The notes beneath the pieces were generated by a model that saw only the letters and a program-made list of their open reading frames with translations, did no database searches and was not told the origin of the DNA. Both the position numbers and the translations under genes were made by a program. DNA of 34,679 nucleotides from a virus (Duplodnaviria; Caudoviricetes). Location of the stretch: the IMG/VR virus record IMGVR_UViG_3300020045_007409, positions 1 through 34,679 of that record; one strand, given 5' to 3'. Shown piece after piece: positions 1,588 through 34,605 of the stretch. The number at the start of each line of letters is the position of its first letter. The stretch's first letter is position 1.

Positions 1588-4433
1588 CTGAATTTATAGT
1601 TACATAGGTAATATAAGAAAATGGTCTTTGTATTAGGATCAAATGTCCCCTGAACAGCCGAAATATCAGATTGTGCCGAAAAGAAGACAGTGTTTATACC
1701 GAATAAATCTTTAAATGCTTTTGCTATTCTGGCAACACCTTCGATAGTGGTTTCTTCCCCTTCAATGTCTGAAAACGAAGGAACAGCGACTTTAACAGTC
1801 TCTCCTACTTTCTCAGATATTCTATCCAATGCAGTTTTTTGTGAAGCAGATAGTATCTTATCTTCGATAGCCTGAGATTGATCAATGCTTTTGAATACTA
1901 TGCCATCTTTATCTGCAAATGCTATTCCAGAATCTTTATTAAGGATTTGATCCTTAATAGATGCCTTGAACAATGCCTTATTAGACGATATAATATTTTT
2001 AATAGATTGTGGTATATTCTTGGAAATAGCAGTAACTAATTTATCAAGTGTTGTCTGTGGGTCTTCTCGAAGCCCATTTGCTACTGTTTTGATTAAATTG
2101 TTTTGTTCAGCAGGATTACCGAATATACGATTGGTTTCGTTGATATCCTCAGTAGAAAGACCGTTTATCTCAGATATAAAATCAATTAATTCGTTTTCCT
2201 TCTCAGCATTATATTCACTATCTTGAGTAAATCTATTTGAAACAATATCTGTAATTGATTTAATGCTTTTAGAACGTATCTGATCGATTTTGTCTTCGAT
2301 TATAGTATCTAATGCTGCATTAGCACTGGCAGAATTGTCGAAATCGTTCCCATCAATACGAAAACCTTTAGTTGTTCCAGTGTTATCATCTAGAACTGTT
2401 TCGATTACTGGAAATACACCAAGTCTTTGCCCCTTTTCCTTTATACTGGAAGGACTTGTAATGGCGTCAACTGCTGATACTGAATTATTCGCTCTGTTTG
2501 TTGAAATATCTCTATTTCTTTCTGGATAGAACTTCTGAAAGATATCATTGGCTTTGTTCAAGTCAGTCTTTTTAGCTTCTAAGATATTTGAAATAATATC
2601 ATCTTCAAATCCAAGATTGCGAAGATTTTCATCAGTCAAAGATTTACCAATTTCGACAGTATTTAAGTATCCAGAATATGTTGAACCTGCTGCACCGAAT
2701 ATTACAAGTGGCACTAATCCGATAGCAACGTCTGCGCGAGTAGATTTCCACTCTTGTAATTCACGATCAAAGTCAATATCTGGAATATCCTCAGATAATG
2801 CCGAGAATATTGACTGTACTACAGGAGTTGTGGCATCTTGTAAGCCTTCTATAACAAATTCACTACCATAAGAAAGCGCAAATCTCGTAGCTAATGTTTT
2901 GGCTAAGAATGTTGATTTGGCAAGCTCTTTAAAATTGAAGAATTTTGATGTCCCTACTATAGTTAATTTATCCAATGCTCCTTGAACAGCACCAGATACT
3001 AATGATATATTAGCAGCATCGGATGCAGCCATTTCAGGATAATTATTACGTAAATCGGTGTACTCTAATCCAGAATATAGATTAGCAGCAGCAACTGTTC
3101 CTGGTATTCCCCCGACAACTGCAAGTCCAAGCAATGATCCAGAAGAACCTATAGTCGATGCCATAGTTCCTAAATAGCCTTGAACTGTTCCAGAACGGTA
3201 GTCAATTGATGGGTTAACGGTATTCAATATAGAGTCTATATCTCTTGAAGAATTTATGTCCTTTTGAGTTTCTAAGATAGCATTATCAATTAATTGTCTT
3301 TCGGTGGAGTTAACTGCTCGTTCGAAGCCTTTTTTTCCTGCCAGTAGTTCACCAACTTGTGTAGTTGATGCCATACCAGTTTGAAATGGATTAATATCTA
3401 TGGTCTTTAGTTTCTGAGCAACTTTCTGAGCAAGTAATCCAGTAACATATTCTTTAGCCTTTTCAGGAGAATCTATTTCAGAATCTGAATAATAGTTAAA
3501 GGATTTGTCGGCCATCTTCAAATCTTCCAATTCTGTTTCTATATCCTTGGTTCCCATGCCTTTAAGTCCACCAACGAATATATTTTTAACTGAATTATTA
3601 AAAGCCTCAACTATTGCGCCACTATCCTGAGATTTTCCTGTTTTTTCAGTTTCTCCTCGTTTTGATGCAAAGGTTTTAACTGCAACGGTAACTGCTTGCT
3701 GAACAACTGGATTATCTTTTTTAAGTTTATTAAAAAAGGTATCTAATTGTTTCTTTGAATCCGCTGTTTCCTTACCAATTGTCTGATTGTAAAGGTTTTC
3801 GATGACTTGTGGAATCTCTGCTTTATAAGGATCATATAAAGATTTAATGTTCATTCGACCTTTAGAAAATTCAGTAACATCTAAATCGGGATTTTTAGCT
3901 CTAGCATTGCGAATAGCATCAGCCATACCTTCACCATTTATATAGCTAATAGTTCCTAATTTCAAAGAATCTTGGGAAATATTATTACGTTTGTTGAATG
4001 TTGAATAGGAATTCTTCAAGTCATCATACAATTCTTTTTCAGTTTTAAAGTCTTTGTTCTTTGTTTTTGCCCAAGAACCTTTGAAATTTTCATAATTCTG
4101 TTTGTCGAAATCTTTATAAACATTAGAGAAATAAAGTGAATTTGCTTCGCGGTATTTATCTTCATCAGTTGGAAAGTAAGAGATGTCTTCCCCTAGTAGT
4201 TGAGTAATACCTTCGATACCGGAAAACACGGTATCAAGTTTTTGTTTATTCTCTTCCTGTGTTTGTAGGAATAGTTTATCTTTTTTTGGGGTTAGTGGGA
4301 GATTAAATGATTTCTGCTGATTCTCATAAGCCTTCATCAACTTAGCATAATTTACTGCATCAGTCTCTGGGGTTGTATCTTTGAGTATTTCTTGGGAGAA
4401 CAAATCATAATCTTCTTCTGTAATTAAAGGCAT
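1584..4433 (-). CDS. Giant internal virion/ejection (polyvalent-type) protein, N-terminal part; truncated near 1615
   Basis: Last gene of the ejection-protein block. Has a hydrophobic Gly/Ala segment (GLAVVGGIPGTVAAA...EFVIEGLQD) typical of DNA-transfer proteins. Ends in QGTFDPNTKTIFL, the usual lead-in to a zincin HExxH domain. Confidence 0.7.
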   Translation of the reverse strand: MPLITEEDYDLFSQEILKDTTPETDAVNYAKLMKAYENQQKSFNLPLTPKKDKLFLQTQEENKQKLDTVFSGIEGITQLLGEDISYFPTDEDKYREANSLYFSNVYKDFDKQNYENFKGSWAKTKNKDFKTEKELYDDLKNSYSTFNKRNNISQDSLKLGTISYINGEGMADAIRNARAKNPDLDVTEFSKGRMNIKSLYDPYKAEIPQVIENLYNQTIGKETADSKKQLDTFFNKLKKDNPVVQQAVTVAVKTFASKRGETEKTGKSQDSGAIVEAFNNSVKNIFVGGLKGMGTKDIETELEDLKMADKSFNYYSDSEIDSPEKAKEYVTGLLAQKVAQKLKTIDINPFQTGMASTTQVGELLAGKKGFERAVNSTERQLIDNAILETQKDINSSRDIDSILNTVNPSIDYRSGTVQGYLGTMASTIGSSGSLLGLAVVGGIPGTVAAANLYSGLEYTDLRNNYPEMAASDAANISLVSGAVQGALDKLTIVGTSKFFNFKELAKSTFLAKTLATRFALSYGSEFVIEGLQDATTPVVQSIFSALSEDIPDIDFDRELQEWKSTRADVAIGLVPLVIFGAAGSTYSGYLNTVEIGKSLTDENLRNLGFEDDIISNILEAKKTDLNKANDIFQKFYPERNRDISTNRANNSVSAVDAITSPSSIKEKGQRLGVFPVIETVLDDNTGTTKGFRIDGNDFDNSASANAALDTIIEDKIDQIRSKSIKSITDIVSNRFTQDSEYNAEKENELIDFISEINGLSTEDINETNRIFGNPAEQNNLIKTVANGLREDPQTTLDKLVTAISKNIPQSIKNIISSNKALFKASIKDQILNKDSGIAFADKDGIVFKSIDQSQAIEDKILSASQKTALDRISEKVGETVKVAVPSFSDIEGEETTIEGVARIAKAFKDLFGINTVFFSAQSDISAVQGTFDPNTKTIFLYYLCNYKFR

Positions 4434-4438
4434 AGAAG

Positions 4439-4446
4439 TATTTATA
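4439..4446 (-). promoter_or_regulatory. TATAAATA box (T4 gp55-type late-promoter-like), 5 nt before ATG
   Basis: Minus strand TATAAATA-cttct-ATG. Confidence 0.65.
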
Positions 4447-4452
4447 ACTTTA

Positions 4453-6777
4453 TTACGGATTTGCTTTTAATAGTTCTTCCATTCGCTTCTTAGCAGCATC
4501 AGATTGTGTAGATGATGGATTCTTTAATCCGCTCAAGCCTATAGGTTTATTCTTTCCTATTTGGGAATTTACATAATTCACGCTTTGCTCGCGGGTTTTA
4601 ATATTTCCTAAACGTATTTCAGCCATCAGATTATCTTTAATCTGAGACATCAATAATTCAGCTTCTTGTCTCTTCTCGGCATCTTCAACCTCTTCGAACT
4701 GAATATTGTTCTTTATTTTATCGGGCTTTACTTCAATGATTTCCCCATTATCGCCAGTATAGGTAACTTTATCCTTATATTTAGTTAAAGGAACTTCTAC
4801 AGATGTTGGGATAACTTGTCCTATATCTGTTGGTTTTGCTAAACGATATGTTTTTTCTCCAGGAAAAAGATAACGTACATTTGCGCTTTCTTTTATTATT
4901 TCCTCGTTAAATGTTTTTGTGGATAGCATTCCGCGTGGCTTCTCTATCTGAATAAATTTAGGTTCGGTAGTTTTGAATGGAATAATTTTACCTTCCTTGA
5001 ATTGTTTATTTAATACTGAGAATGCATCGGAAGTTATACCCGTAACTCGTTTGCCTTCGGAGGTTTCGGTGTTTTTACGAAGTAAATCTTTAAGACGGGT
5101 TTGCCCTTCACCATTTGTCTTCAATTCTATTTCACCAAAAAGATTCATTTCTTGGACGCGAAGATTTTTACGCTCTTCATCAGTCGCAGCCTGATTATAT
5201 TTGTTTGAAAACTCGTACACTTTAGTCTCAAGATCGGAATAGAACCCATTTGAAACTACTTTATTTCTAAAATCGGTATTATTTTGATATTCTATTAAAG
5301 AACTTTTAAGGGTTTGGATGTTAGGATCAGAGAAATTCAATGTTTTATAAGCAGGATCACTGGTTATAATATTTTCTATGTTTTGACCATTAAGTTGACC
5401 AATATCAATAGCCTGTTTTAAACTTTTAACATTATCATTAGCCTTTTCATACAAAGATTGTGTTGCAATATTTTTAAGTTTAAATTCGTCATTTGGAGAG
5501 AACCCTGTTGAAGAGTATTTCTTTGGATTATAATCTTTTGGAAGTTCAACACCAGTCAATTCTTGGTATTTTGCACGTACAGATGAAGGCCATTCTGAAT
5601 TTGTTTGATTAGGATCATTACTTGCTCCAGGAGGAGAATATATTGCTCCAATTCCCTCAATAGTATTTGCCTTATAGTTTGATATAGCCTTTGCCGCAAT
5701 ACGGATACTCTCGTCCACACTAGTCATTGTTCTTGGACCACTATTATCAGATATACCTGTAGCGTTATTTTTATTTTTAAACGCATTACTTTTACCATTT
5801 CCTGTTTCAAACATTGAGACAGCCATTAAAAAGTTAGGATCGATACCATACTCTTCACCATATTTTTGGAAAGATGCAATATATGGGGATAATTCAGAAG
5901 GAGCATTTACTGGTGGGGCTACGGTAGTTCCTTTAGCATTAAGTTTGTTTAAAAATTCATCAGGTTTTTCAACTGCTTCGGTCTGTGCATTATCTAATTT
6001 GTTGCTGTATTCATAACGATACTTCACATTAGAACGATAATTCTGAGCCTCATTTGGGTTGATAAATCCATTTTTTTCAGCATCATCGATTTGTCTATAT
6101 GCTAGTTCATATTGATCAGCATTTATAAAATTCTCTAAATTATTTTTAAAGGCGTTCTGACCTATGGTATTTTTAACATTTGATGCATCTTCAAGCATTA
6201 ATGACCCCTGCTCTTCTGTGAAGATACCACGGGATATACCATCTCTAACATATTCGGTATATCTATCCATCTTTGTTGGATCATTGGAATTGATTGCAGA
6301 ATTACGCATTAAGTCAAGAGAACCCTTAAATGCATCACCTGTGCGCTGGAAAGCAGATGAGTACACATTTGTACGCATGTTAGATGACCAATTATTTAAT
6401 TTTTGTTCTAATTTATATTTTGTTTCGGCTGAAACATTTGCATTTGTTATCTTTTCTTGGAAAGCTGGTAGACGTTCCTCTAATCTCTTTTCCCAATGTG
6501 GGATATAATCAGAGTCTGGTCTGTTTAGATTTTCTGGTTGGTTTTTCCATTTTTCAAATTCTAACGATTCATTATCCAACTCCATATCAAAATCTAATTG
6601 CTCTCTTAGATCATCTGCCCCTTGTTTTTTAGCAAATAATCCTGCAACACCTTCTCCAAATCGAGCAACACCCCTCGCGATTTCTGCATATCCAGCAGTT
6701 GAATCAATATTAGGGGTTTGAACTGCAATACTTGGAAGTTTGACGAATGATTGTTCTAAAAGTGGTATACGTGCCAT
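4453..6777 (-). CDS. Internal virion protein with a lysozyme-fold (GH73 glucosaminidase-like) peptidoglycan hydrolase domain
   Basis: YGEEYGIDPNFLMAVSMFETGNGKS..KNKNNATGI..IGAIYSPPGASNDPNQTNSEW embedded in a helical protein, in the ejection-protein position. Confidence 0.8.
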   Translation of the reverse strand: MARIPLLEQSFVKLPSIAVQTPNIDSTAGYAEIARGVARFGEGVAGLFAKKQGADDLREQLDFDMELDNESLEFEKWKNQPENLNRPDSDYIPHWEKRLEERLPAFQEKITNANVSAETKYKLEQKLNNWSSNMRTNVYSSAFQRTGDAFKGSLDLMRNSAINSNDPTKMDRYTEYVRDGISRGIFTEEQGSLMLEDASNVKNTIGQNAFKNNLENFINADQYELAYRQIDDAEKNGFINPNEAQNYRSNVKYRYEYSNKLDNAQTEAVEKPDEFLNKLNAKGTTVAPPVNAPSELSPYIASFQKYGEEYGIDPNFLMAVSMFETGNGKSNAFKNKNNATGISDNSGPRTMTSVDESIRIAAKAISNYKANTIEGIGAIYSPPGASNDPNQTNSEWPSSVRAKYQELTGVELPKDYNPKKYSSTGFSPNDEFKLKNIATQSLYEKANDNVKSLKQAIDIGQLNGQNIENIITSDPAYKTLNFSDPNIQTLKSSLIEYQNNTDFRNKVVSNGFYSDLETKVYEFSNKYNQAATDEERKNLRVQEMNLFGEIELKTNGEGQTRLKDLLRKNTETSEGKRVTGITSDAFSVLNKQFKEGKIIPFKTTEPKFIQIEKPRGMLSTKTFNEEIIKESANVRYLFPGEKTYRLAKPTDIGQVIPTSVEVPLTKYKDKVTYTGDNGEIIEVKPDKIKNNIQFEEVEDAEKRQEAELLMSQIKDNLMAEIRLGNIKTREQSVNYVNSQIGKNKPIGLSGLKNPSSTQSDAAKKRMEELLKANP

Positions 6778-6782
6778 GATAG

Positions 6783-6790
6783 TATTTATA
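6783..6790 (-). promoter_or_regulatory. TATAAATA box 5 nt before ATG
   Basis: TATAAATA-ctatc-ATG. Confidence 0.65.
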
Positions 6791-6810
6791 TAAAATAAAA
6801 GAAATAGAGA

Positions 6811-7470
6811 TTATTTTCCACTGGAAGTAACAGAGGATGTCATAGGCCCAACAGTAACAGATGATTTTGATGCTGGGGCTTTATATGGAGATGTGTATGC
6901 TCCACCAATTGTTCCCACCATTGATCCTAATCCTGATACAAGTGTTCCAGTTGCTGCACGTTTATATCCAGCAGATTCAGCCTTTCCTAATTGTAGTGCT
7001 GCACCTGCTCTATAATTCAGATTTGAACTATTTATTTGATTAACTATTCCTGCATCGGTGAGGTCTGTATTATTTTGTTTCCATGTATCAGCCTCTAATT
7101 GTAAGGCAGTGCCTACACCAGCAACAATACCTGAATCAGCAATAGCTGCTAACTGCTTGGCTCTGAATCGTCTTTGATCTTCTGCTAGTCTTCGTTGGTT
7201 CTCTGAAAATTCTAATTCTTTCTGTTTCTGCTCATTTGCAAGTGCCTGTGATTCAGCTTCTGCATTATATTTCGCTTGTTTGGCCGCAGTCTGTTGAGCA
7301 CTATAAGAAATAGCAGTGCTTGCAGCAGTTGCGGCCAATGATGCATACAAAGATATTGTTCCCGCTGTTCCCAATGCTTCAATAATATTCAACGGAGGTT
7401 TTCTATTATATATATCCCCAAAGGTAGAAGGACATGTTGGAGGTAGGCAATGATCTGTGAATTTTCTCAT
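6811..7470 (-). CDS. Small ejection/pilot protein (T7 gp14 / P22 gp7-like position)
   Basis: Ala/Gly-rich hydrophobic N-region, Gln-rich coiled coil, Gly-rich C-region; synteny. Confidence 0.7.
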   Translation of the reverse strand: MRKFTDHCLPPTCPSTFGDIYNRKPPLNIIEALGTAGTISLYASLAATAASTAISYSAQQTAAKQAKYNAEAESQALANEQKQKELEFSENQRRLAEDQRRFRAKQLAAIADSGIVAGVGTALQLEADTWKQNNTDLTDAGIVNQINSSNLNYRAGAALQLGKAESAGYKRAATGTLVSGLGSMVGTIGGAYTSPYKAPASKSSVTVGPMTSSVTSSGK

Positions 7471-7475
7471 ATTAA

Positions 7476-7483
7476 TATTTATA
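7476..7483 (-). promoter_or_regulatory. TATAAATA box 5 nt before ATG
   Basis: TATAAATA-ttaat-ATG. Confidence 0.65.
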
Positions 7484-7491
7484 AAATATAG

Positions 7492-7914
7492 TTAAACAAT
7501 AGCTCTTGCAATTGATATCGGATTTTCATCTACTATGAATCCTGATCGTTTAATTTCATTATTTAATCTTTTTGAAAGAACTGCCTTTACTAAAAATTTA
7601 GAATTCGTGTTGGTCTGTAAAATACTAATATAATCAGAAACTACTTTCCAAAGAGCATCCCAATATTTTCTTGATTCAAATATTGACATATTCGGTTTAG
7701 ATAATAAATGATCCAATTGAATAATAGGTACACCTAAAATATGATAAACAAATATCACCATTTTAGGCGTTACTACGAGATAATCATCTAAATCCACCGC
7801 TAAGAATCCATTTTGAGATAGGAAGCACTCATTTAATTCTATTTTTCTTTCGTCTGCCCAGCTTTTAATTATATCAAAATGCTCATTGGGTTCATACTTT
7901 ATAACAGTTATCAT
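7492..7914 (-). CDS. Putative GNAT-like virion assembly protein (T7 gp13 / P22 gp14 position)
   Basis: 140 aa between the nozzle and the first ejection protein; C-terminal IKRSGFIV resembles the GNAT tail. Call rests mainly on synteny. Confidence 0.5.
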   Translation of the reverse strand: MITVIKYEPNEHFDIIKSWADERKIELNECFLSQNGFLAVDLDDYLVVTPKMVIFVYHILGVPIIQLDHLLSKPNMSIFESRKYWDALWKVVSDYISILQTNTNSKFLVKAVLSKRLNNEIKRSGFIVDENPISIARAIV

Positions 7915-7922
7915 TTCAATAT

Positions 7923-10900
7923 TTATTGAACTTCAAGCTTAAATACGATTCCTCGCAAGTTGAATGGATTAGGATCGGAATGTGAAACTATAAAATTTAA
8001 ATCTTGTGACCAAGATGAATTTATAACATTATATTGTGTTTGACCAGTGTATGATATTTCAAAGTCACCTGGATATCCTGCCGTAGAACTTAAAGGATAG
8101 TCTGGATTTCTTGGATAATCAGTAGATGGTGAGAAAATGAAGTTTTGATAATTAATATCAGTATATGGTTTATTTTCCATTAATCCGAGTTCGAAATTAT
8201 CTTGTGCATATTCTGCATCATTAAATGCTCCTTCAATAGTTTTGAATTGACCACCATAACTTCTCCATAAACTGAATACCGCAGAATCTATTCTAACTTT
8301 CTTACCAAAAGATGTTCCATTCTGTAACTGAACTTCAAACTTAGTAGGGATATATAACGATGTGTATGGTAATCCAAATACTGGATTAAAGAACCCTGAT
8401 GTATTGCCATCATTTCCTGTTAATGTGATGGTTCCTGTTCCGAAATCAAATGCTGTTAAAGGAACGCCACCATATCTGATGGATTCTACATCTCTTCCCA
8501 ATAAGTGATTCGTAGCATACACTAATGAACTATAACGGGTTCTTGTTGGAGAGGTGAGGGTTGATCTTACTTCTAATGGCTGATAAGAATCCAAGAATCT
8601 CCAATAATTATTATATGATATTGCTCTCCACGATGAACCATATATAAAGTTCATCATCTCTGGTGAGAATCTTTCAACATAATATTGGGCAGTTGGTGTT
8701 CCCGCCACATCTATGTAGCGTTTAACGGTAAACCAAATCTCATCTACTTGATTTTCTCCACCAAATACTACTGCAACACTGGTAAACATGTCTTTATCGG
8801 CTTCATCATTATAATATTTGTCACGTTCGCCAGTTATATGTCTGTGCCATGCGGTTATATTTTGATCACGATCATATGAGAAACCTACCAATCCACCCTT
8901 TTCAGTAACACACCATAAGACAGGTTCAATATTACTTTGGAAAGCAGCTTGAATAAATGAATCTTGGTTCATCTGTTCCGCAATCATAGTCATATCTGGT
9001 GCATTAAATGCATCTCTTTCAAATGAATATGCGAATTCTCTTAAACGTTTCTTACCACGTTGGAAGAATAACAAGGAATCTCCAGTCAATGTTGCTGGAA
9101 TTGTTGAACAGCCATAATTAACTCTGCGTTCAACATTTACATTAGATGCGGTGATTACAGAATCTCTAGTACCTGCATCAACAGTGTAAATTTCACCTTC
9201 TGTTCCTACTACTAATGCTTTATTATATGATCTGAGCCACATAATTTTATTTGTAGCAGTTGAAGATAACATGAAATCCAATCCATCAGTATCTGTAGTG
9301 CCTTTAAGGAATACGTATAAATCTTCGGTCTTAGAACCCCAAATTCTACTTGGTTCGCTATCAAGGCCACCCCACCATACACGGCTTTGATGATAAGTCA
9401 CGGTTCTTGGATATCCAGAAGTTGGCCCAAATGCTGGACGACGATAATTTGATGTTGAAACACCCATTATATTTGCTGGTGGTATTTGATCATTTGGAAG
9501 AATGAAACGACCTTTTAATTCACTATCTGATACATATTCTTCAACTCGAAATGGAAGGGTGAGAACTGCGCTAACTGGTTCGATTTTAAACAAACGTCCG
9601 CTTGTTCCACCACTTGTTCTAATAGCTGATACACGATACCAACTACCAACTGCATCTGCTTCGGACGAATATGAAATATTGCCCTCATCAACATCAGTAG
9701 TGATCCATTGTCTAACAGTGTACCAAGTTATACCATCATCTGATTTCTCAAGAATTAGAGTTCCTACCATTGCTCCACCACTCAACCAGTTAGTTGAGAC
9801 AATAAATGCTCCCTGAATAAAAATAGGTTCACTTGGTCCGATGTTTGTTCCAGTAGAAATTACAACTGATTCATAATAATCGGGGCAACCAATTGAAATT
9901 TGGTACATAATACCTTCATCCTCAGATGTGAAGACTCCTTGCGAAGATACTAGTTTATATTTTACCCCTGTTAAATCAGTTAATCCTGAGCTTATTTTCC
10001 AATATAATGTCCAATTTTGGCCAAATCCTGGGTTATTGCCGCCCTGATAACCATATCTTCCTTTAACGGCGGCTACCGCTTTATGGCTTAGCTTAACCTC
10101 ATATACCACTTTTCCAAAAAGAATCTTATTTCCAGTTACGTAGTTTGTTCCTGCGATCCAGCTTTTAAGTTTTTCAGACGATGTTCCTTCATTCCAATAA
10201 GTTGTCCAAGAACCAGATGTTATTCCTGGCTGTCCAAGAGCATCTGTAGTAGAATTTTTTGGTGTGTGGGCAGTGTGACAAGTGTATAATAAACCATTAG
10301 AGTTAATTGTTCTATCACCAACTGCAAATGTAACTTGTGTCCAATATGTTGCCCAAGTAGCTCCAACTCCTGGTTCGTTTCCACCTGCGCCAGCGGCTGA
10401 TGAAGTATGTGCTAAAATACATCTATATATTCCAAGTGTTCCAGTAGTCTTTTTTACATATTCTCCTACAACATACGGTGTTAACGCTGCCCATACTGTT
10501 TGACCATTATCCCAATTTTCGTAATCAAATTGTGCTTGAATAGGACTAGCAAAAACTCCATCAAGTGTTGGTGGAAATTCAAATGGAACATTTTCAAATC
10601 TCCAATCGAGTTCTGAATATCTACTAAGACGTTTCGGATGATGGTTTGGGTGTGCCAAGAACATTACGTCATTTATTTGACAAAATTGGATATCAAATAA
10701 TTCTTCTTCTTGATAAGGTGTTTCGATTTCTATTGCAGCGGTTGCTCCAACATTATCCTCTGGAGTCATTTGCATCCAATATGTAGTATTATCTATTCCA
10801 GATGTTGGGTATTCATCATGTTCTATAACACATCTATAAATTTTATAAACTAAATCAACTAAATCATATTCATACACAAGATCATCTTTTTGATAGGTAA

Positions 10901-11396: not shown

Positions 11397-11402
11397 GATA
11401 TA

Positions 11403-12197: not shown

Positions 12198-12209
12198 AAA
12201 GATACTTAT

Positions 12210-12245: not shown

Positions 12246-12267
12246 AAGGGAATGATTTTATATTATA

Positions 12268-23504: not shown

Positions 23505-23512
23505 AATTTATT

Positions 23513-24039: not shown

Positions 24040-24086
24040 ATTTAATTGAAAATTGAGAAAGTGTTTCTTTTGAATTAAATATCATC

Positions 24087-24320: not shown

Positions 24321-24347
24321 AATTATTTATTTGTAATAAATAGTTAT

Positions 24348-24530: not shown

Positions 24531-24561
24531 AAAAGTTATTTTTAAATCTAAATAATTTAAT

Positions 24562-25059: not shown

Positions 25060-25098
25060 GTGTAAAATCACGAAAATGTACGTTTTCATATAAGTAAT

Positions 25099-25665
25099 AT
25101 GTATATGAACACACAACCAAACAACATTCAAAAACGTCCAGACGGAACATACATCACAAATATTGATGATCACTCATATCCACTAATTCCATTGGCTAAT
25201 GGGCAATTTACAATAGTGTCTTGGGAAGACTTTGATATGCTTAAAAAATATAACTGGTATCTCAGGTCTACTGATAACTATATCGGTACAAACATCACTC
25301 TCAAAGGTGAGAAATACGAGTCACCCAATGGTCGTATTAAAACAAAACAAAAGACCTTGCTTCTCCATACATTGATTCGTCCAAAAGAAAAAGGTAAAGT
25401 ATTGGATCATATTAACGGGTGCCGTATAGACAATAGACGAGAAAATCTACGACTTGTTTCCAGACATGTTAATGCAGTCAATAGGACAAGAGTTAATTCT
25501 AATAATAAATTACAAACGCCCGGAGTAACACAAAGAAGAAAAAGATTTGTAGCACGCATAACCATAAATGGCGTTCTAACTTATCTTGGTATATATAAAA
25601 CAAAGGAAGAGGCCGCACAAGTATATCAAAAAGCCCAAAAGGAATTATTGGATTCTCTGATTTAA
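25099..25665 (+). CDS. HNH endonuclease with C-terminal AP2-like domain
   Basis: LDHINGCRIDNRRENLR; GV..RFVARITING..YLGIYKTKEEAAQVY. Confidence 0.9.
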   Translation: MYMNTQPNNIQKRPDGTYITNIDDHSYPLIPLANGQFTIVSWEDFDMLKKYNWYLRSTDNYIGTNITLKGEKYESPNGRIKTKQKTLLLHTLIRPKEKGKVLDHINGCRIDNRRENLRLVSRHVNAVNRTRVNSNNKLQTPGVTQRRKRFVARITINGVLTYLGIYKTKEEAAQVYQKAQKELLDSLI

Positions 25666-26082
25666 ATTAATATGTGAGTAAAATGGATGACTGAAATCTA
25701 AGCTACCATTTTTGGTCAAATTGACTGAGGCTGGAACTGGTAGCAGATTTTCTTCGTGATGTTTACCACCCTTTGAAAGAGGCACTAAATGATCTACATG
25801 GTATTTGATGCCAATACAGACAGTTAAACGAGCAGACATTTCATAAAAGGTATTAATTATATTTTGGTTAGCATTTTCTGGAGTGGCACTAGTTTTCACT
25901 GCCCTACGCTTAGCATCAGATGCATTAACTTTGTCTGGATTATTTTTTCGATATTCTTTATGATAATCTTTAATTTTTAGCATATTATCTCTGTAATACT
26001 TCTTGGTGTATTCTTTCTTTTTATCCGCATTATTTTTATAATACTTTTTATCATAATCCTTTCTCTCTTCCTTTGTCATCAT
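25645..26082 (-). CDS. HNH endonuclease
   Basis: AKRRAVK..ATP, YHVDHLVPLSKGGKHHEENL..NLTKN. Confidence 0.88.
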   Translation of the reverse strand: MMTKEERKDYDKKYYKNNADKKKEYTKKYYRDNMLKIKDYHKEYRKNNPDKVNASDAKRRAVKTSATPENANQNIINTFYEMSARLTVCIGIKYHVDHLVPLSKGGKHHEENLLPVPASVNLTKNGSLDFSHPFYSHINLNQRIQ

Positions 26083-26096
26083 AATAATATTTAATT

Positions 26097-26133
26097 AAAA
26101 ACCCCACTCGATTTTATTCAAGCGGGGTTCTTT
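26097..26133 (-). terminator. Intrinsic terminator after the holin, abutting the HNH promoter box
   Basis: Minus strand aaccccgcttgaataaaatcgagtggggttttt. Confidence 0.6.
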
Positions 26134-26208
26134 GGTTCAATCATCTACTGCCAGGCGACCAATTAAACCATACCCTCATTATAGTATGGTTTTTGTGTGG
26201 GGCAACTA

Positions 26209-26403
26209 TTAACTATCTTTTTCTTTAAGTGTGTCTGGGACAAAGACACCAATCAATCCTGCAACAGCAGTTCCAGCAGCAATAATGTGTGTTGCTATTT
26301 CGGGATTAATTGTAATTCCGAAAGCAGTAACTACTAAAATAAGACCTCTCCAAGATGAGGATTCTTTTGCACGTTTCACTATAAATGGTAATATTTTTTT
26401 CAT
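26209..26403 (-). CDS. Putative holin (two TM segments)
   Basis: KESSSWRGLILVVTAFG..IIAAGTAVAGLIGVF; charged C-tail. Confidence 0.65.
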   Translation of the reverse strand: MKKILPFIVKRAKESSSWRGLILVVTAFGITINPEIATHIIAAGTAVAGLIGVFVPDTLKEKDS

Positions 26404-26411
26404 ATATTAGA

Positions 26412-26693
26412 TTATTTACCTTTCAGTGCCTGTTTTATTTCCTCAATACCAGACTTGATGTACGAAATATCTGTGTGAAGTATTGCAGTGGTTTTTTCAA
26501 TGTTGGATATTCTTTCCTTAATTACCTCATGTGAGATTTCCACTTTTTCAACCCGCTTTAAGTCCTCGTTGCGGGTAGTTTTGAATTCCGCAGTGGTGTA
26601 CTCTATTTTTCCCCATGCAATTGATATGGCCGCAACCACTGATATTAATGTTAGTATTGTTCCAAAGGAGATTTCTTGAATGAATTTAGGCAT
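26412..26693 (-). CDS. N-terminal TM plus coiled-coil protein (lysis-module associated; start revised to 26693)
   Basis: ISFGTILTLISVVAAISIAWG followed by heptads ending ISYIKSGIEEIK. Confidence 0.6.
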   Translation of the reverse strand: MPKFIQEISFGTILTLISVVAAISIAWGKIEYTTAEFKTTRNEDLKRVEKVEISHEVIKERISNIEKTTAILHTDISYIKSGIEEIKQALKGK

Positions 26694-27027
26694 AAGGCAG
26701 TAGAATATATTTATCATATCATTATAGATTTATATAATATTTCAAGATTCGATTTAGATTGGTTCTAACGAATCTGAAAGCGTTTATAGTATGCCGACAC
26801 TACATTCATGTAAAAGTCCGCCAAAACACCTCACAACACGATTTAATGGGCAATTCAATGATTTTGAATGCGATGATATAGCCCAGTCAAGAACACGTTG
26901 CTAATAAATACGATTTTTTTTATTTTGTATACGTTTCTCCTTGAATTGATAGTTGACTTGATTTATACTGTCGTGTCAACGGCCAAAAACCCTCCCGCCA
27001 AACAAAAAAACTATACTCTTAAAACAT

Positions 27028-27684
27028 TTATTTAATATAATTAAATAAATCAAAATCTTCTTTAAAGAAGTTATATACTAATTCTTTTAATTCATCATCA
27101 TAGTAATCCATGTGAGAATTTTTTGTATAGAATAACTCATGAGGAATATCTACTATGCCGAGATAATTCTTTATCGATTCTATATCCTCAAATCGTAAAA
27201 TATCATTTACTATTATTTCCCCAGTAGAATCTACAACAAATGATTTTTGTGTAGAAAAATGTGAATCAAAAATTACATGGCGCACAAAGGGTGGCAGAGC
27301 AAATGTTTTTAAAATAAACTCACGAAAGCTTAAATTTTTAAAATCTTTACATTTTGTAACATCATGTTTTTGAATATAATTATATTCTGATACCATTCTT
27401 TCGTATGGATTTCTAACAATAGCAAATGAGGTATATTTATTCCAGATAGAAGGCACTAAACGTTTTAATTGGTATGCAGTTAAATGTTGTGGGGTTACAT
27501 AATTGATTGAATCCACCTCATCTCTCGAAAACCCTCTAAAATCAAACTTCAATTGTGTAAATCCTATAGGCTTTAGCGAAAATAGCTGAAACTCGTCAGC
27601 AATATGGAAGTATTTTTCGATACTTGACCCCATATTTTTGGCGATATGAATAAACAATTTGTTTCTATCAGAAATAACAGGCAT
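27028..27684 (-). CDS. Sulfotransferase (Sulfotransfer_2-like)
   Basis: 5'-PSB-like LFIHIAKNMGSSI, 3'-PB FAIVRNPYERMVSEY, HFSTQ, ILRFEDI, DFDLFNY. Confidence 0.85.
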   Translation of the reverse strand: MPVISDRNKLFIHIAKNMGSSIEKYFHIADEFQLFSLKPIGFTQLKFDFRGFSRDEVDSINYVTPQHLTAYQLKRLVPSIWNKYTSFAIVRNPYERMVSEYNYIQKHDVTKCKDFKNLSFREFILKTFALPPFVRHVIFDSHFSTQKSFVVDSTGEIIVNDILRFEDIESIKNYLGIVDIPHELFYTKNSHMDYYDDELKELVYNFFKEDFDLFNYIK

Positions 27685-27690
27685 ATAATA

Positions 27691-28875
27691 TTATTTATGC
27701 GCTGAAAAGTATTTTCCAATATAGTCAATTTTCACGCTCGAATTAAGTGCTGGAGCTATAAAATGAATAGCAACAGTCTCATCGCTATGCTTTTTGGAAA
27801 GGCTGGTTACGCTGGCATTGGTTAAACAGAAATATTTATTAAGAGAACCATCTAATATATTGGCATAAACAAAGTATACGTTAACAAATGATTGTTCAAA
27901 GAAATAACTAGAAGGCCAAACTGAAATAAACCAATTTATGTTTTTAAAATGTTCCCTCATTCTATTCGTATTACTAAATGCGTATTGTCCAGCATTGAAT
28001 GGCATATTACTTTGCTTAGTAGCAAGAGAAACAATCTCATCAGTATTGAATTTTAAACCGTGATAATGTGTGTTATATGATCCTATGAACACTTCTTTAT
28101 TGGAAACTGAATAAAATACATCGTCATTTGTGATATCATCAAATATAATATTTAAATCCTTTACAGTAATTATATCACAATCTAAAAATAATATTTTATT
28201 ATAATTATTGATTAATTTAAAATCATATATCTTCATTTTATTCATACTAGCCTCAATTCCATCTATAGGTTTATTGATTAAGTGATAATGAACATTAAAT
28301 TCAGATATAATATCAAGTGAGTCAACTGATACTTTTGTGACTTCATCTATTATTAAAAGAACATCAAAATCAATATTCGGTGTTTTTTCTTTGATACTTT
28401 CAAGCGATTTATTCAGTAGCTGAACATAGCCATCACCATAAACCGTGTAATAAAGTAGATTTTTATTACCAAATGGTAGATTCGGAAGAACATTAATCTG
28501 CGAAATATTATTCTTTAATATTGAAAAAATAGTGTTCTTATCATCATCAGTGTTTTTAAATGGGGTGATGGTATTTATTTTTATATACGGATCAGTTGTT
28601 ACTGGAGCAGAATCGTTAAAAATGATATCATTTTTAGATTCAAATTCAAATCTTTTTTGGATTCCGTTCTTATAATTTACTATATAGTGTATAGAAGTAG
28701 CATCTTCAAAAATATAATCATTAATTGATAAAAATCTAAGATTTGACTGTATAATATTTTGAACATTATTAGTTAAATCTACCCGGTCTACTCTTGTATT
28801 TTTTGTAATAACTAATTGGGCACTAGTAATAGTTCCTTGGTCAACTCTAAATGTTGATGGAAGTTTGATTTTCAT
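27691..28875 (-). CDS. GT-A fold glycosyltransferase (GT8-like) with ~135-aa N-terminal extension
   Basis: YNKILFLDCDII (DxD), FNAG, FEQSFVN, IHF. Confidence 0.8.
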   Translation of the reverse strand: MKIKLPSTFRVDQGTITSAQLVITKNTRVDRVDLTNNVQNIIQSNLRFLSINDYIFEDATSIHYIVNYKNGIQKRFEFESKNDIIFNDSAPVTTDPYIKINTITPFKNTDDDKNTIFSILKNNISQINVLPNLPFGNKNLLYYTVYGDGYVQLLNKSLESIKEKTPNIDFDVLLIIDEVTKVSVDSLDIISEFNVHYHLINKPIDGIEASMNKMKIYDFKLINNYNKILFLDCDIITVKDLNIIFDDITNDDVFYSVSNKEVFIGSYNTHYHGLKFNTDEIVSLATKQSNMPFNAGQYAFSNTNRMREHFKNINWFISVWPSSYFFEQSFVNVYFVYANILDGSLNKYFCLTNASVTSLSKKHSDETVAIHFIAPALNSSVKIDYIGKYFSAHK

Positions 28876-28879
28876 ATAT

Positions 28880-29608
28880 TTATGTAGAACATGCTTCTAT
28901 CGCAGTTACACCAGTTTCATTTACGTAGGTATAGATGTTCCCGCTGTATACAAATGATCCAGTAGAAATCTCTGTAACGGAATTCTGATCCAAATAAACT
29001 CTAGTACCAATCTCTATTGACAATGGATTGACACAAAAATAGCCTCCTAAAATATTGCTTAATGAACAATTATCATATGCGGTAAATTCGGTTAAACATT
29101 CATTAATGGCTGTTATAACACCATCTGTGACATTATATGACAGACCTTCATATGAAAACAATGAAGAGGTATAACTAGAATTGAGGCCGGAATTACTATA
29201 TAGTGGAGTACCAACTATTAATACAGTATCAGAGTATTTTGTATACAGGGTTAAAGACCCTCCCCCACATGATTCAAAGCCTGACCATTCGTTATTACAA
29301 GGTGAATACGTAAGTATTTCACCAGTTATATCAGGATTCATTTGAGCAGGATTATCTTGCGACGGTATATAATAATAAAAAGAACCAGTCATCGGGAAAA
29401 GCAGCTCTGAATCGCTATAGACTATAACTCCAACATCCAATTCATCCCCCACACCAGTAGAAGTATAAACATTGAATGCGCCCGAACCTGCACAATCCTC
29501 TGATACATTCCATACTAAATATATAGGAGAGCCAGAACCAATAGATAGAAAACCTGTTTTGTTTATTCTAGATTTACCTAATACTGAATATTTATTAATA
29601 CTGTTCAT
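28880..29608 (-). CDS. Putative virion surface protein with three Cys-containing repeats (start revised to 29608)
   Basis: Repeats C..VYT..VGVIVYSDS / C..LYT..VGTPLYSNS / C..YF..IGTRVYLDQ; TAATG coupling at 29608. Confidence 0.6.
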   Translation of the reverse strand: MNSINKYSVLGKSRINKTGFLSIGSGSPIYLVWNVSEDCAGSGAFNVYTSTGVGDELDVGVIVYSDSELLFPMTGSFYYYIPSQDNPAQMNPDITGEILTYSPCNNEWSGFESCGGGSLTLYTKYSDTVLIVGTPLYSNSGLNSSYTSSLFSYEGLSYNVTDGVITAINECLTEFTAYDNCSLSNILGGYFCVNPLSIEIGTRVYLDQNSVTEISTGSFVYSGNIYTYVNETGVTAIEACST

Positions 29609-30009
29609 TATAATGATGCAGGCCAAATACCCATTGTTTTAATTTCATTTTCAGTCTTTGCGGAATTTATCCAAAATTGCGGAAATGACTCAAATACGTT
29701 TAATTCGTTACCTTTACTGACTTCAATAAGATCAATTAAATTTTGAAGATCAATATTGTCTATATAGTTTAGTGCAACAAACGGTTCTAATATGTCAATT
29801 ATTGGCTCGATATCAGCATCTAAATGTACGGGAATAGTAAAGTTAGTGTCTACTTGTAGCCACACAGAACCATCTGTCATTACTTTTGTAGCGAACATAT
29901 TTGATGTGTCATTGCTTTCGCGAATATTGATTGGACGTGTCAACGACCAAAGGGCACTAGTTAAATTAGATGCCACACTTTGATTAGATGTTTGTATATA
30001 TTTTATCAT
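29608..30009 (-). CDS. Hypothetical protein, possibly chaperone/assembly partner of the upstream lectin-domain protein
   Basis: 133 aa, overlapping both neighbours by ATGA / TAATG. Confidence 0.6.
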   Translation of the reverse strand: MIKYIQTSNQSVASNLTSALWSLTRPINIRESNDTSNMFATKVMTDGSVWLQVDTNFTIPVHLDADIEPIIDILEPFVALNYIDNIDLQNLIDLIEVSKGNELNVFESFPQFWINSAKTENEIKTMGIWPASL

Positions 30010-30935
30010 ATTCCGAAATAAGTTGCTTGCTCTGTGCGAATGGTTTCAAGATCAGTTGAACCAATATCAGAAAACCAAATAACTGCCTCACTCCATTTAT
30101 TACCCGTATTAAAATTACCAGTTGATGAGGATATACCACAAGTTAATATTCTATTGACATCAAATGCAGTGCTATTAGAAGTCAATCCAGACGAAACACC
30201 ATTTAAAACAGATTCTGTTTGTGTCCCAGAAAAGCGAGTTGTTCTGGTAAATGCGCCATATCCAGCAGCAGTTGTGAGATTTAACAACCCTGCTCCCGAT
30301 CTAAATGAATAAAAATTCAATCCAGTATTTCTAAACGAAAGAATCACGCTTCCTGCATTGGCAAAATCACTTGCAGTGTCTTTAGTTAATCCTAGAAATC
30401 TTTCACTATCTAGCCCAGTATCAGCTTGATGACCAACGAGTGTAGAACTGACAGTTGTTCCAGTGTAATCAGTAAAAGAAGATGTCGAATATGGTCCCAT
30501 AGAATTAGAACTTGCAGTCCCGCAAGGTCTAGTATTTGTACCAATAGTTTCAAGAACACCAGAAGAAACAATTCTAAGTTGATTTGCCGCTGTAGATAAA
30601 GTTAAATTTCTACTATTTCCAGATTGGTCATATTTGGTTACTATATGCCCATGCTGAGTGCCTCCTCCAGCAATAACAAATGCAGTTATACTAGCAGTAT
30701 CAAGATTACCATTCGATGTAAATCCGAAATCATATTCTGAATTATCTCCGCTTCTACGAACACGAATCAGACTTCCAGAATAATTGGAAAGCAGTCGTCT
30801 CGAAACGGAGTATGCCCCTGCTAAATTAGAAGAATAACTATCTAATGGTGCAGGAACACTAGAGGAATCTAAAAAACCCATCTTTAGATGCCTAAACTTT
30901 CCAGAAAAGGAATATTTATTAATAGAATTTATCAT
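30006..30935 (-). CDS. ConA-like lectin / arabinofuranosidase-B-like domain protein, putative receptor-binding or decoration protein
   Basis: AYSVSRRLLSNYSGSLIRVRRSGDNSEYDFGF..GNLDT..KYDQSGNSRN; C-terminal SEAVIW..EQATYFGI. Confidence 0.7.
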   Translation of the reverse strand: MINSINKYSFSGKFRHLKMGFLDSSSVPAPLDSYSSNLAGAYSVSRRLLSNYSGSLIRVRRSGDNSEYDFGFTSNGNLDTASITAFVIAGGGTQHGHIVTKYDQSGNSRNLTLSTAANQLRIVSSGVLETIGTNTRPCGTASSNSMGPYSTSSFTDYTGTTVSSTLVGHQADTGLDSERFLGLTKDTASDFANAGSVILSFRNTGLNFYSFRSGAGLLNLTTAAGYGAFTRTTRFSGTQTESVLNGVSSGLTSNSTAFDVNRILTCGISSSTGNFNTGNKWSEAVIWFSDIGSTDLETIRTEQATYFGI

Positions 30936-30939
30936 TTAA

Positions 30940-31242
30940 TTACGCAGATTTACGAAACATTGCATCAACAAAGATGGTAACTTGTGTGTTGGAAGTGTCG
31001 GCTCTACGGAATTCGATTTGTGCAGTGCTGTTAACACCTTCTATAAGATAGAATTTAGCATCCTTAATCTGCATAACAGAAGTCGGATCAAATGATTTTC
31101 TAAATTGAATAGTTGTTCCAGAATCATTAACAAATAGAACTTCGTTAATTGGAGTAACGGCAGACACACCACCAGCGGTTAAAGAAACCCAATTTGTTCC
31201 AGTGGATGATGTTTGGGCAGACAAGAATTTTGAATAAGTCAT
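30940..31242 (-). CDS. Small beta-rich putative structural protein
   Basis: 100 aa, Thr/Ser-rich; TATAAATA 7 nt upstream; heads the surface-protein block. Confidence 0.55.
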   Translation of the reverse strand: MTYSKFLSAQTSSTGTNWVSLTAGGVSAVTPINEVLFVNDSGTTIQFRKSFDPTSVMQIKDAKFYLIEGVNSTAQIEFRRADTSNTQVTIFVDAMFRKSA

Positions 31243-31271
31243 ATAGTTATATTTATATTTTTTTAGAAGAA

Positions 31272-34200
31272 TTAATCCTTTTCATATTCTTCTTTGAATA
31301 TTATATCGTATAACTGATTTACAACTTTTGTGATATTTGTAACACCAGTTAGGGTAGAATTTCCTGATAAGGTTGAAAGTGAATTTACGGATTTATTAAA
31401 GGTGTCAATAAAGTCACCAATAGAATCTTCGGAGAAATCCTCTTCACCCAATGCGTTTAAATCTTCGAATATTTTAACAGAATCTGCCCCACCTTTTACA
31501 GAAGAGATAATTACGTTATCAGAACCAAAAATAGGTATTTTCTTCTGATCCTCGTCAAAAAGATCAAGAAATTTATTCATTGCACTATAACCTAGTTCTG
31601 TTATACCACCTCCGACCATGAAAAGTCCTGAAAGTGGTCCAAGTAAGATATCCATCATTAATTTATTTGTATTATAGATGTCCTCATCTTCGTCCTCTGG
31701 TTTCATCCAATCGGATACAGAAGCACGAATCATCCAAGTGAATAATCCAAATAATACGTGGTTAGTGAATACTGTTTTGTTAAACACTTTACCAAGTCCT
31801 TTTTGTTTTTTAAATTCTGCGATTTCTAGTCCTAGATTTTTACGAGTTTCGCTTGTGAAAAGAGTTATAACCTTTAGAATAGGGTTGTTGGTCAATTCGA
31901 TAGAGGATTTGCCCGCTAATGTGGTTGGCTGGAATGTTTTTAGAATAGTTCTGCGCATACCCTCATTGGCTGCAATTTCTGCATCTGCATCACTTAATTT
32001 AGCCTTTTTAGCCATTTCGTAATGAGCATGATAGGCAATATTTGCTGCTAATGTGCCGCCCAAGGCATCTGCCTGAGACATCGGCTCTAGGGAATATTCT
32101 GCAATAGTGCTGAACATTCCTGGACGGTCAATAGCATCTCTATTTTTAGAAAGATTTACAAGAGCATTTGCACCAGCATTAATACGTTGCTGAATCTCTT
32201 TTGAACCTCGTCTGGTGCTCCAACCACTTAATGCTTTGAAAGTCGCTCTAAACGCAACAGAAGTCGGAATAGAGGCATCTAGGAAAGTGTTGAATGCACT
32301 GGTAAGGTTGATGAGTATAGTTCTTAGGTTATAGCCCATTATTCCACGTGCAGCAGCCACAGTCATTTTACGAATTCTATTAGACACAACACTGTTAAAT
32401 GTGGTGTCACGAATACCATTTGTTTCAAATGCAGATAAATGACGGAAAAGAGTCTCACGGAAGCTTTTGCCGAATGAATTATCAATAGTATCAGTTATTT
32501 TAGAATCAGTTAGAACAGTTTTAGCAACAGTTAAAGGAGCAGTCATATTTCTTCTGTATATGCTGTTAAGCATGAAGAAGTTATACATTGTTATGAGATT
32601 GTTTCCACCTCCTAATAGATCAAGGTCGATTTCGCGGCTACTTTCTCCAGTGATTTCATCAAAGGTGTTATCAATATTTCCAGTATTTAGCGAAATATCA
32701 TATGAGTTAATTTGTGCTATAGTTTTATTCTTAAATGGAACTGGGAAGAATCCATCAACAGGAGTTGCTGGAGCGAATCCGTACATTTTTTCGTATTCCT
32801 TTTTAGTTTTTTCGATTTCTGATTTGATCTTCTTTTTAAGAATATTTCTTAAAGTATTAACTTCTGGAGAAATATTATTTTTAAGAGTTGTGATGGTTGT
32901 ATCATCAATGCCTTCCTTTTCAAGGGATTCATTGTAAACACCCATTTCGGAAATATTTAAAATCAATGCTGCTTGTGACTCAGTTATCTTAACCTTTTTA
33001 CCATCCGCTTTTTCTAAGGTGATAGTGTTTTCAGTTAATATATCATAAAGTTTCTTTTTAATAGAACTGTTGGATTTAAGGCCAAAAGCTTTAGCTACAT
33101 CATTCCCGAGATTCTCAGTTAATTGGAAATTATCATCATTTATTTGGAAAAATGCATCTTGGATACTATCTGTTATCTTTTGGAAAGCAGGAGTAGCCCC
33201 TTTACCAATAACAGATGTTTTTAATTTATAAAGCTCTTGCTCTTGTTCTTGAGTTCTATTTTTTGTCTTTGTAAGCTCTGAAATGCGTTTTTGGATTGCC
33301 GAACTTTCATTATTTGGTGATAAAACTTCAAGAAGACTTCCAAATGATAAATGAGTATTTGCAAAATTGCTTAACACATCAAACGTATTACGGAACCAAT
33401 CCTTTGATCCGTTCGAATTAACATTAAGCATATTATCAGTCATTTGTAGCACTGGTGCTGATGTTGCAATTTCCTTCTGAATATTATCAGTAGATTCTTT
33501 TAACAAGTCTTCAAATGTTTGAATATTATTCTTTGCATTTGTTAGATTTTCAAAAAATCTAAGAGCATTCTGTAGTTCGTTGCTATTCTTTTTATCTAAA
33601 CCTGCTAAAGATTTTAGAATATTTGAGCGCAATACCTTACCATAGAATGTTTCACCACTTAGTTCAGACAATATATCAGAATCGGTTATGTTAGGAACAC
33701 CGTTTTCTTTATATATGGAATTATTAATCGCAGATATTTCATTAATTGCCGATTTTTCGTCAAGATTAACTGCATGTATTACAGTTGATTTGACGAAATC
33801 TGGAAGTTCGTCTGTAGTTGATATTCTGTTAGAAATAACTTCTTTATAATTATCAGATAGATCAGAATCGAGCTTTTTGATAGCATCTTTAACCAATGCA
33901 CGCTTTTCATTTAATGACATTGCGTTCAATTCGTCTAATGTTTTAGATTGTCTTGTAACAGCCATCGCCTGTGCGAGAACATTATCAGAATAGTTTCTAT
34001 TATTGATCGCATTGAACAATGGTGAAAATATCTTTCTTATCGAAGCTCTATATTTTTTTGATTGTGATTGGAATTCGTCATTATAAACAGTCCCACGAAC
34101 TAATTCACCAGTTTCATCATCAGTAATTTCATATGTGTCTAATACTGATACAGGTTTTGACGGAATTTGTGTTCCAAAATCGGTTATGCTCTGAGCAAAT

Positions 34201-34605
34201 GATTCGTTACTAAGTGGAGATACTTCTATTTCACCAGTTTGAATATCTGTAGAGTTTTTAGCAGCAATTATAATCTCACGCGCTTTGGAAATAATGTGAT
34301 TTAGTTTTGCTCGTTCTGTCTTATTGAACGATTCGTTGAATAGTGTATATCCGTGTAAAGGTGCATTTTTAGTTTCACCAGCAGCTTGTGCTATTTTCTC
34401 GGCAATGAATGAATCAACCTTATCAAGTTCATTAACTATAAATGGAACCTCATTTCTTGTTTCTAAGAATGCATCCTTTAGTTTATTGATATATTTTCTA
34501 ACACCATTATAGAACTTTTTGAAAAGGTTTTTATCTGTATTATATAATTTTTCAATAAATGACTCATTGAACATTCTTTCGGCGATAAAATCAGCTAACA
34601 GTTCT
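31272..34605 (-). CDS. Giant internal virion protein, C-terminal part (5' end lost at the junction near 34600)
   Basis: Begins ELLADFIAERM (third-ligand helix pattern of zincin/MPTase domains). Ends in an LPD-type helical region (RTILKTFQP..NPILKVITLFTSE). No genuine start codon or promoter box. Confidence 0.7.

Follow-up and report, generated by a model that had tools for sequence, protein, structure and literature searches.

A near-complete podovirus genome with T4-late-type promoter boxes as a candidate virion-autonomous phage satellite

A satellite virus of a phage has been defined as an element that encodes virion proteins and depends on a helper to replicate (PMC13587820). MiniFlayer and MulchRoom from Streptomyces (PMC10690885) and Ando (PMC13587820) encode their own terminase, portal and capsid, lack key replication genes and have a G+C content (GC) well under that of their kin or host and close to that of the helper; MiniFlayer also lacks an integrase. 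These features are shared by the element described here, positions 1615-34596 of the 34,679-base virus contig IMGVR_UViG_3300020045_007409 (GC 34%; the whole contig is called the window). The element is considered, with a probability of roughly 0.6 and from its sequence, to be a virion-autonomous podovirus satellite that would borrow the gp55-type late transcription of a T4-like jumbo phage, and probably its replisome too.

The published satellites are 13-17 kb long, occur in actinomycetes and use siphovirus helpers, whereas the element has about 33 kb; MulchRoom and Ando use helper tails, whereas the element has a full podovirus tail and ejection set; and the word 'promoter' is absent from the main texts of PMC10690885 and PMC13587820, whereas helper-type late boxes run through the whole genome of the element. 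The size (15-17 kb), direct terminal repeats and actinomycete host of the MiniFlayer/MulchRoom family were not found here, the nearest cellular copy being in Prosthecobacter; the GC below kin and near that of the helper was found (32-39% in the clade of the element, 48-57% in its sister clade and 41% in the large phage G007). In the virophages Mavirus, Sputnik and Guarani (PMC6723459), as in the element, virion genes are self-encoded and a helper late promoter precedes most or all genes, replication genes included, a trait recognized here by sequence only. Virophages have eukaryotic hosts, giant-virus helpers and an unrelated capsid lineage, and instead of the Maveriviricetes capsid the element has the portal, capsid and terminase of tailed phages, so that the likeness is one of mechanism and not of membership. 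PLE (phage-inducible chromosomal island-like element) of Vibrio cholerae has its own iteron-binding initiator, which is predicted here as well, helper products are expected for replication in both cases, and its helper is virulent; PLE integrates and takes the virion parts of the helper, whereas the element makes its own particle and lacks an integrase (bioRxiv 10.1101/639039). The integrase and the absence of tail genes that characterize P4, phage-inducible chromosomal islands (PICI), cf-PICI and PLE are not seen in the element (phrog_376 and phrog_394 are present). We infer that the element is a phage satellite virus, virophage-like in its working and a member of neither the virophages nor the P4/PICI/PLE group. 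It is a variant and not a new category of satellite, because capsid-encoding, replication-deficient satellites have been published (MiniFlayer, MulchRoom, Ando); a preliminary description of this DNA had presented the self-made virion as a reversal of P4/PICI/PLE logic, for which MiniFlayer and MulchRoom already provide precedent (PMC10690885). A literature search found neither a podovirus satellite driven by gp55 promoters nor a tailed phage that carries such promoters throughout its genome yet lacks a gp55 gene, with thin coverage of subscription journals and with bioRxiv supplements outside its scope.

T4 late transcription (gp55, gp33, gp45; PMC1524935, PMC2988020, PMC7892883) uses a TATAAATA-type core that spans -13 to -6 (PMC1524935), with the +1 five bases below the box and without a -35 element, and gp55-RNA polymerase (RNAP) shows basal activity on supercoiled DNA (PMC2988020). 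The element shares the core type and the spacing: its boxes have a TAARTA core, the upstream logo is flat and no -35 is conserved. The claim of gp55-like boxes in the preliminary description stood by position and not by number, since the raw count of TATAAATA in the window is not enriched (7 vs 6.5 expected), whereas 13 of 77 TAARTA sites have an ATG exactly 5 nt downstream against 1.4 expected. A box was found within 9 nt of 24 of the 36 gene starts and of 11 of 1165 other ATGs; the first of these figures is inflated, as the box guided the choice of some starts, and the 5-nt spacing count is the cleaner test. A Shine-Dalgarno-like motif was present at 1 of the 36 starts. From the T4 geometry and the 5-nt spacing, the messages are predicted to begin on the AUG (leaderless); the box abutting the start codon and the lack of a gp55 gene distinguish the element from T4.

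Three boxed relatives (G001-G003) were obtained with an alignment query of viral contigs, whereas single-protein scans gave none. They are 28-33 kb long, with a GC of 32-39% and a portal identity of 44-47%, have gene order and boxes in common with the window, and contain no sigma factor, helicase, integrase or repressor that could be found. A box stands upstream of the Rep gene in all four genomes and 145-213 nt upstream of the capsid gene in the three checked, and the density per 10 kb is 4.9 in the window, 3.4 in G001, 4.7 in G002, 4.6 in G003 and 0 in the sister phages G004 and G005. Low GC alone does not give the signal, because the density does not exceed 1.2 boxes per 10 kb in 77 distant TerL loci, many of them with 30-39% GC, vs 3.4-4.9 in the boxed clade. 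Among 66 portal loci in viral contigs three are boxed (G001-G003) and the other 63 (GC 48-58%) have 0-1 boxed starts; further boxed loci were three short metagenome loci and one viral fragment. Reducing 68 portals to 15 at 85% identity and adding 14 database proteins gave a quick portal tree of 29 rows, in which the boxed genomes fall in one 12-row clade (SH-aLRT 99), with DNA context for 5 rows, and the sister is a box-less, high-GC clade (SH-aLRT 100). Both sister genomes examined carry DnaB or a primase-helicase, an initiator and recombinases, none of which occurs in the boxed genomes; the expectation that relatives would keep the boxes and that box-less sister podoviruses would encode functions of their own was thus borne out, the functions found in the sisters being replication genes.

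The family scans (Pfam, PHROG) covered 41 window open reading frames (ORFs) and agreed with the gene inventory of the preliminary description in most points. The packaging, head and tail set is supported by matches to TerL, portal, two capsid genes, tail tube, nozzle and internal virion protein, TerS was recognized through its G001 homologue, and the long ejection genes were assigned from size, position and relatives, so that the element encodes virion proteins as satellite viruses do. Polymerase, helicase, RNAP, sigma factor, repressor, integrase and free-standing endolysin gave no match among the 41 ORFs, the glucosaminidase match lying within an ejection protein. The non-structural ORFs of G001-G003, genomes that like the element are near-complete, gave no integrase either, and partition, repressor and antiterminator families were unmatched in the window and in the ORFs of the relatives. 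No gp55 was found in the window or in G001-G003 with a profile made for it (best E 0.44 among 1881 segments), and no hypothetical ORF resembles this factor. The features of the window are as follows.

1..1614: foreign chimeric left end, without homologue in five related genomes
2-433, plus strand: piece of a TerL from a different podovirus type, in the foreign left end
540-1587, minus strand: crAss-like primase fragment and small ORFs, in the foreign left end
1615..4433, minus strand: large ejection protein, N-terminal ~940 aa, cut by the contig end; box at 5 nt; aligns to the G001 and G003 N-termini
4439..31255, both strands: TAA(A/G)TA boxes, T4-late-type promoter cores, ahead of most gene starts
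4453..6777, minus strand: second ejection protein with glucosaminidase domain (PF01832, E 7.6e-8); box at 5 nt
6811-7470, minus strand: internal virion protein (phrog_418); box at 5 nt
7492-7914, minus strand: conserved 140-aa ORF; box at 5 nt
7923-11396, minus strand: tail nozzle (phrog_376)
11403-12197, minus strand: tail tube/adaptor (phrog_394); box at 5 nt
12584-13474 (with leader 12584..13693), minus strand: major capsid protein (PF19821, E 6.6e-48)
13475-13693, minus strand: capsid leader of ~210 nt, starting at a box; kept in G002 (L079 15600-15806, ~200 nt)
13761..14537, minus strand: second, diverged capsid gene (PF19821, E 3.5e-18; 27-30% to the single major capsid protein of the relatives)
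15075-15986, minus strand: likely scaffold (phrog_3742, position); box at 5 nt
within 15075..16306, beside the scaffold, minus strand: conserved 99-aa head ORF (from relatives); box at 5 nt
16362..18083, minus strand: portal (PF12236, E 8e-101)
18705-20309, minus strand: TerL (phrog_2)
20309-20779, minus strand: likely TerS (G001 homologue matches phrog_51); box at 5 nt
21147..21371, minus strand: acidic ORF of 74 aa, boxed and divergent from Rep; matches G002 with E 3e-9, G001 and G003 without significance
21648..21902, plus strand: iteron array, predicted origin
22175..23218, plus strand: Rep, predicted initiator with winged-helix N-terminus; box ~35 nt upstream
23623..24033, minus strand: APS-kinase-like P-loop kinase (phrog_10255); box at 5 nt
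24562..25059, plus strand: likely single-stranded-DNA-binding protein (SSB; Enc34/T7 gp2.5 fold); box at 7 nt
25099..26082: HNH-AP2 (plus strand) and HNH (minus strand) endonucleases, both boxed (family scans)
26209..26717, minus strand: two small membrane-type ORFs, likely holins from sequence, kept in relatives
27028..28875, minus strand: sulfotransferase and GT8-like glycosyltransferase cassette (PF03567, PF01501), common to large phages
28880..31242, minus strand: tail-fibre/receptor-binding region of four ORFs (phrog_10356, PF09206; position in relatives)
31272..34596, minus strand: large ejection protein, C-terminal ~1107 aa; aligns to G001 1338-2187 and G003 1338-2103
34597..34679, plus strand: exact inverted copy of 2318-2400 (83 nt, 100%), an assembly or amplification artefact

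As had been proposed, the sequence confirms a near-complete podovirus, with a predicted length of about 33.3-33.5 kb. Both contig breaks lie inside one large ejection gene, whose two halves align to proteins of 2200 aa (G001) and 2109 aa (G003) and leave only about 100-140 aa over, so that about 0.3-0.5 kb is absent and no large missing part is left to hold a sigma, RNAP or replication module. The contigs of the relatives level off at 32.1-33.6 kb, and although G001 and G003 are opened at other points, the circular order of the core gene blocks is identical. Circularity is inferred, because direct terminal repeats were found neither in the window nor in G001-G003. No jumbo-phage contig was found around the element, the 14 closest portal homologues lying on contigs of up to 33.4 kb and a cluster member on one of 33.6 kb. 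A primase match at 754-1332 was rejected as a gene of the element, since it sits in the foreign left end.

An iteron origin with a Rep-like gene had also been described, and at 21662-21901 the array repeats a 15-nt core seven times without a mismatch; repeats adjoin the Rep gene in G001-G003 too. The Rep ORF corresponds to the winged-helix N-terminus of a family with winged helix-turn-helix and PolA-like domains (wHTH-PolA-like; hhalign probability 96.7%, E 4.5e-10), of which 77 relatives were found; a homologue search with the window protein matched only itself. In G001 (27539-28657, L078) and G003 (27911-28921, L082) the proteins consist of a winged helix and a minimal PolA-like domain without a Pfam family, and the full-length members, these two included, have invariant R, D, K, E and HD residues fitting the description of TV-Pol. 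They parallel the TV-Pol-like enzyme of Sputnik (PMC2579912) and share with the TV-Pol and PolA-SSB primases (PMC2579912; bioRxiv 10.1101/2022.12.02.518924) the conserved Arg, the two palm Asp and the RxxxK and HD motifs, together with a likely SSB gene nearby; they differ from these primases in having no helicase neighbour and an N-terminal winged helix. These motifs are absent in the window, which keeps only the helix domain, and no polymerase palm or PolA-like domain was found in any frame of the window or G002; judged from sequence, the Rep of the window has lost the domain that G001 and G003 retain. The PolA-like gene of G001 is bordered by 70-nt inverted repeats, which suggests a mobile module.

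A likely SSB had been overlooked in the preliminary inventory of replication genes. ORF 24562-25059 is the only sizeable orphan common to the window and G001-G003, aligns to their copies at 21-25% and adjoins HNH-AP2 in the window, G001 and G002. The model of the G002 copy (pLDDT 68) gave a Foldseek match with E 1.5e-4 and aligned to 5odk with Z 9.1 and a root-mean-square deviation of 3.7 over 120 positions; the window copy joins the G002 copy at 25% identity, its own single-sequence fold has a pLDDT of 33, and no usable feature match was found for it in the Atlas. The modelled fold thus makes an SSB of the Enc34/T7 gp2.5 type likely, and for the window likely but not proven, because weak alignment and synteny link its copy to the modelled one.

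The accessory genes had been called kinds usually carried by large phages, and gp55-encoding jumbo phages do exist that have the same box layout and hold the glycosyltransferase, sulfotransferase and kinase genes in common with the podoviruses. Homologues of the GT8-like gene sit in boxed podoviruses and in large-phage contigs; gp55 was found in 4 of 5 tested large phages with such a homologue and in 5 of 19 of a wider set, including all three complete records (G006 belongs to both sets). G007 is a complete T4-like phage of 224.7 kb with gp55, replisome genes, 24 tRNAs and a tmRNA. Its box-N5-ATG sites number 44 vs 11 in controls, and those of G008 (complete, T4-like, 236 kb, gp55) 74 vs 13; motif and spacing in the podoviruses are exactly those of the gp55 phages. 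In codon usage G001 pairs with G007-type phages (top three of 184 comparisons 0.94, 0.92 and 0.91, next 0.85), to which it is also joined by a 54%-identical kinase, the glycosyltransferase tree and a CA promoter flank. The gene sharing shows a common host gene pool, not the identity of a helper.

Several results weigh against the reading as a gp55-dependent satellite. Many autonomous small phages have no polymerase or helicase and use those of the host, so that missing replication genes alone mean little. G001 and G003 keep the PolA-like domain, and G002 encodes an endolysin, so that the borrowed lysis proposed earlier is genome-specific and not clade-wide; the earlier satellite interpretation is supported in part, by the small gap, the lack of a gp55-like ORF and the comparative predictions, and not in these two points. 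The SSB assignment in the window depends on a weak alignment, and the host assignment on one metagenome-assembled genome (MAG) contig lying outside the boxed clade. G009 and G010 carry gp55 and are not above control in box-ATG sites (12 vs 9 and 11 vs 17), and G226 has gp55 without the box layout. The codon usage of the window indicates no helper (GC-matched p 0.5; G001 group test p 0.93). G006, a large-phage fragment in which neither a gp55 match nor a box enrichment was seen, has the glycosyltransferase/sulfotransferase copy nearest to those of the window and G002 (75% nucleotide identity to G002 over 1.5 kb). The recent exchange of this 1.5-kb cassette, a weak sigma match in G006 and the under-representation of CCGG in both the window and G006 would fit a satellite whose helper is a large phage outside the T4 group, for instance G006, with a sigma factor of its own that would read a similar box; with no box-ATG peak at the genes of G006, this is highly improbable.

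If the phage were autonomous and its TAAATA boxes were read by a cryptic factor of its own, be it the winged-helix Rep, a minimal RNA polymerase of PolA fold or the acidic protein of 74 aa, this would account for the small acidic boxed ORF of similar size near Rep in all four boxed genomes, for the weak match of the PolA-like family to N4 RNAP II (E 0.2) and for the several window ORFs of 47-92 aa without assignment. Such a phage is judged unlikely: the boxes are kept in the window and G002, where the missing PolA-like domain cannot read them, the acidic ORF shows little conservation and carries a box itself, and both the failed gp55 profile and the exact agreement in motif and spacing with gp55 phages speak against it. 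The boxes could otherwise be the sigma or translation-initiation signal (TAAATA-N5-ATG) of an unsampled low-GC host of an autonomous phage, whose shift of host the GC drop of the clade could mirror; the CRISPR search, in which 3 of 401 genomes weakly match window 14700-34596 and none within a repeat array, gives no host. Across 201 genomes from the phylum presumed to hold the host, box counts were near the control pattern without clear enrichment, the hexamer does not match the sigma-70 TANNNT pattern, distant low-GC podoviruses have no box and in large phages the layout goes with gp55, all of which makes a host signal rather improbable. Facultative exploitation, that is, a phage persisting or replicating as a host-driven plasmid-like replicon, able to form some particles without help and merely enhanced by gp55 phages, agrees with the iterons and initiator, the loose sigma-70-like sites upstream of Rep in the window and G002, the endolysin of G002 and the PolA-like domain of G001 and G003; it is very unlikely, as the virion genes are boxed one by one, sigma-70-like sites in the window are near chance (78 vs 62 +/- 10) and no partition, repressor or antiterminator family was matched.

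If the element is a gp55-dependent satellite, the particle would infect a cell, probably of Verrucomicrobiota, unaided, and the circle would stay largely silent inside, which would explain why a repressor is not needed. Waiting as a silent episome seems slightly more probable than co-entry as the way in which it would meet its helper. The helper gp55-RNAP would then start transcription at the box of each gene, so that the messages would be leaderless and begin on AUG, and the winged-helix Rep would bind the iterons and, with the SSB, pass the origin to the helicase and polymerase of the helper, while G001 and G003 would prime with their own PolA-like domain. The element's own terminase and portal would package the DNA, and release would use its own holins plus, in this genome, the endolysin of the helper; the two membrane-type ORFs at 26209..26717 gave no match to holin families. 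For the wider history the chances seem even: a full-size podovirus clade may have passed from autonomous Verrucomicrobiota phages to obligate 'bacterial virophages' by dropping early and replication modules and rewiring nearly all genes to a leaderless gp55 promoter, with codon usage, promoter flank and glycan genes tuned lineage by lineage to its own helper.

Should this be true, a structurally complete-looking phage can parasitise another phage, and such parasites escape satellite searches keyed to integrases or missing virion genes, while helper late boxes without a sigma gene would permit a promoter-based metagenome screen. Virophage logic would have arisen independently in bacteria, with an autonomous sister clade available to trace the transition, and a candidate helper type is named for G001, G007-like phages.

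A high-GC portal-scaffold prophage relic lies among bacterial genes in a Prosthecobacter MAG (L076 197-3220); it is the sole genome-contig copy found and falls outside the boxed and sister clades in the portal tree. The sulfotransferase and GT8 genes are present in all four boxed genomes and in neither of the two sisters examined, the APS-kinase-like copies of G001 and G002 pass the PF01583 cut-off, and from sequence the kinase (23623-24033), sulfotransferase and GT8 (27028-28875) would form a sulfated-glycan pathway. The second capsid gene (13761-14537) is not present in the relatives examined and is possibly a duplication or a decoration protein; repeated elements of 23 nt, at 12522, 14568 and 14992, bound its region, and at 14642-14972 two tandem 135-nt copies, 72% alike, code for short ORFs of membrane type (47 and 59 aa). 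A search for the T4 capsid in five fragments, made without a positive control, gave no match. Folding of the capsid leader is no better than that of shuffled sequences (z -1.46), a leader-motif scan gave six matches, all unrelated, and Rfam had no match in the window, leader included, or in G001-G003. The stretch of about 300 nt that separates the glycosylation cassette from the holin-like genes (26718-27027) has no ORF and carries boxes on both strands, and a non-coding RNA is possible there.

Among the other genomes, G003 has two further genes (L081 4953-5522; L082 7737-8165), one for a boxed GIY-YIG endonuclease located between the head and tail genes and one that is ClpP-like, the latter with a weak homologue in G007. 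The gp55 of G008 (L208, about 103500-105000) is a 500-aa protein split by a long insertion, which we take to resemble an intein with a homing endonuclease. G007, the candidate helper, encodes QueC-like and GTP cyclohydrolase genes (L214, L216), which are typical of 7-deazaguanine DNA modification.

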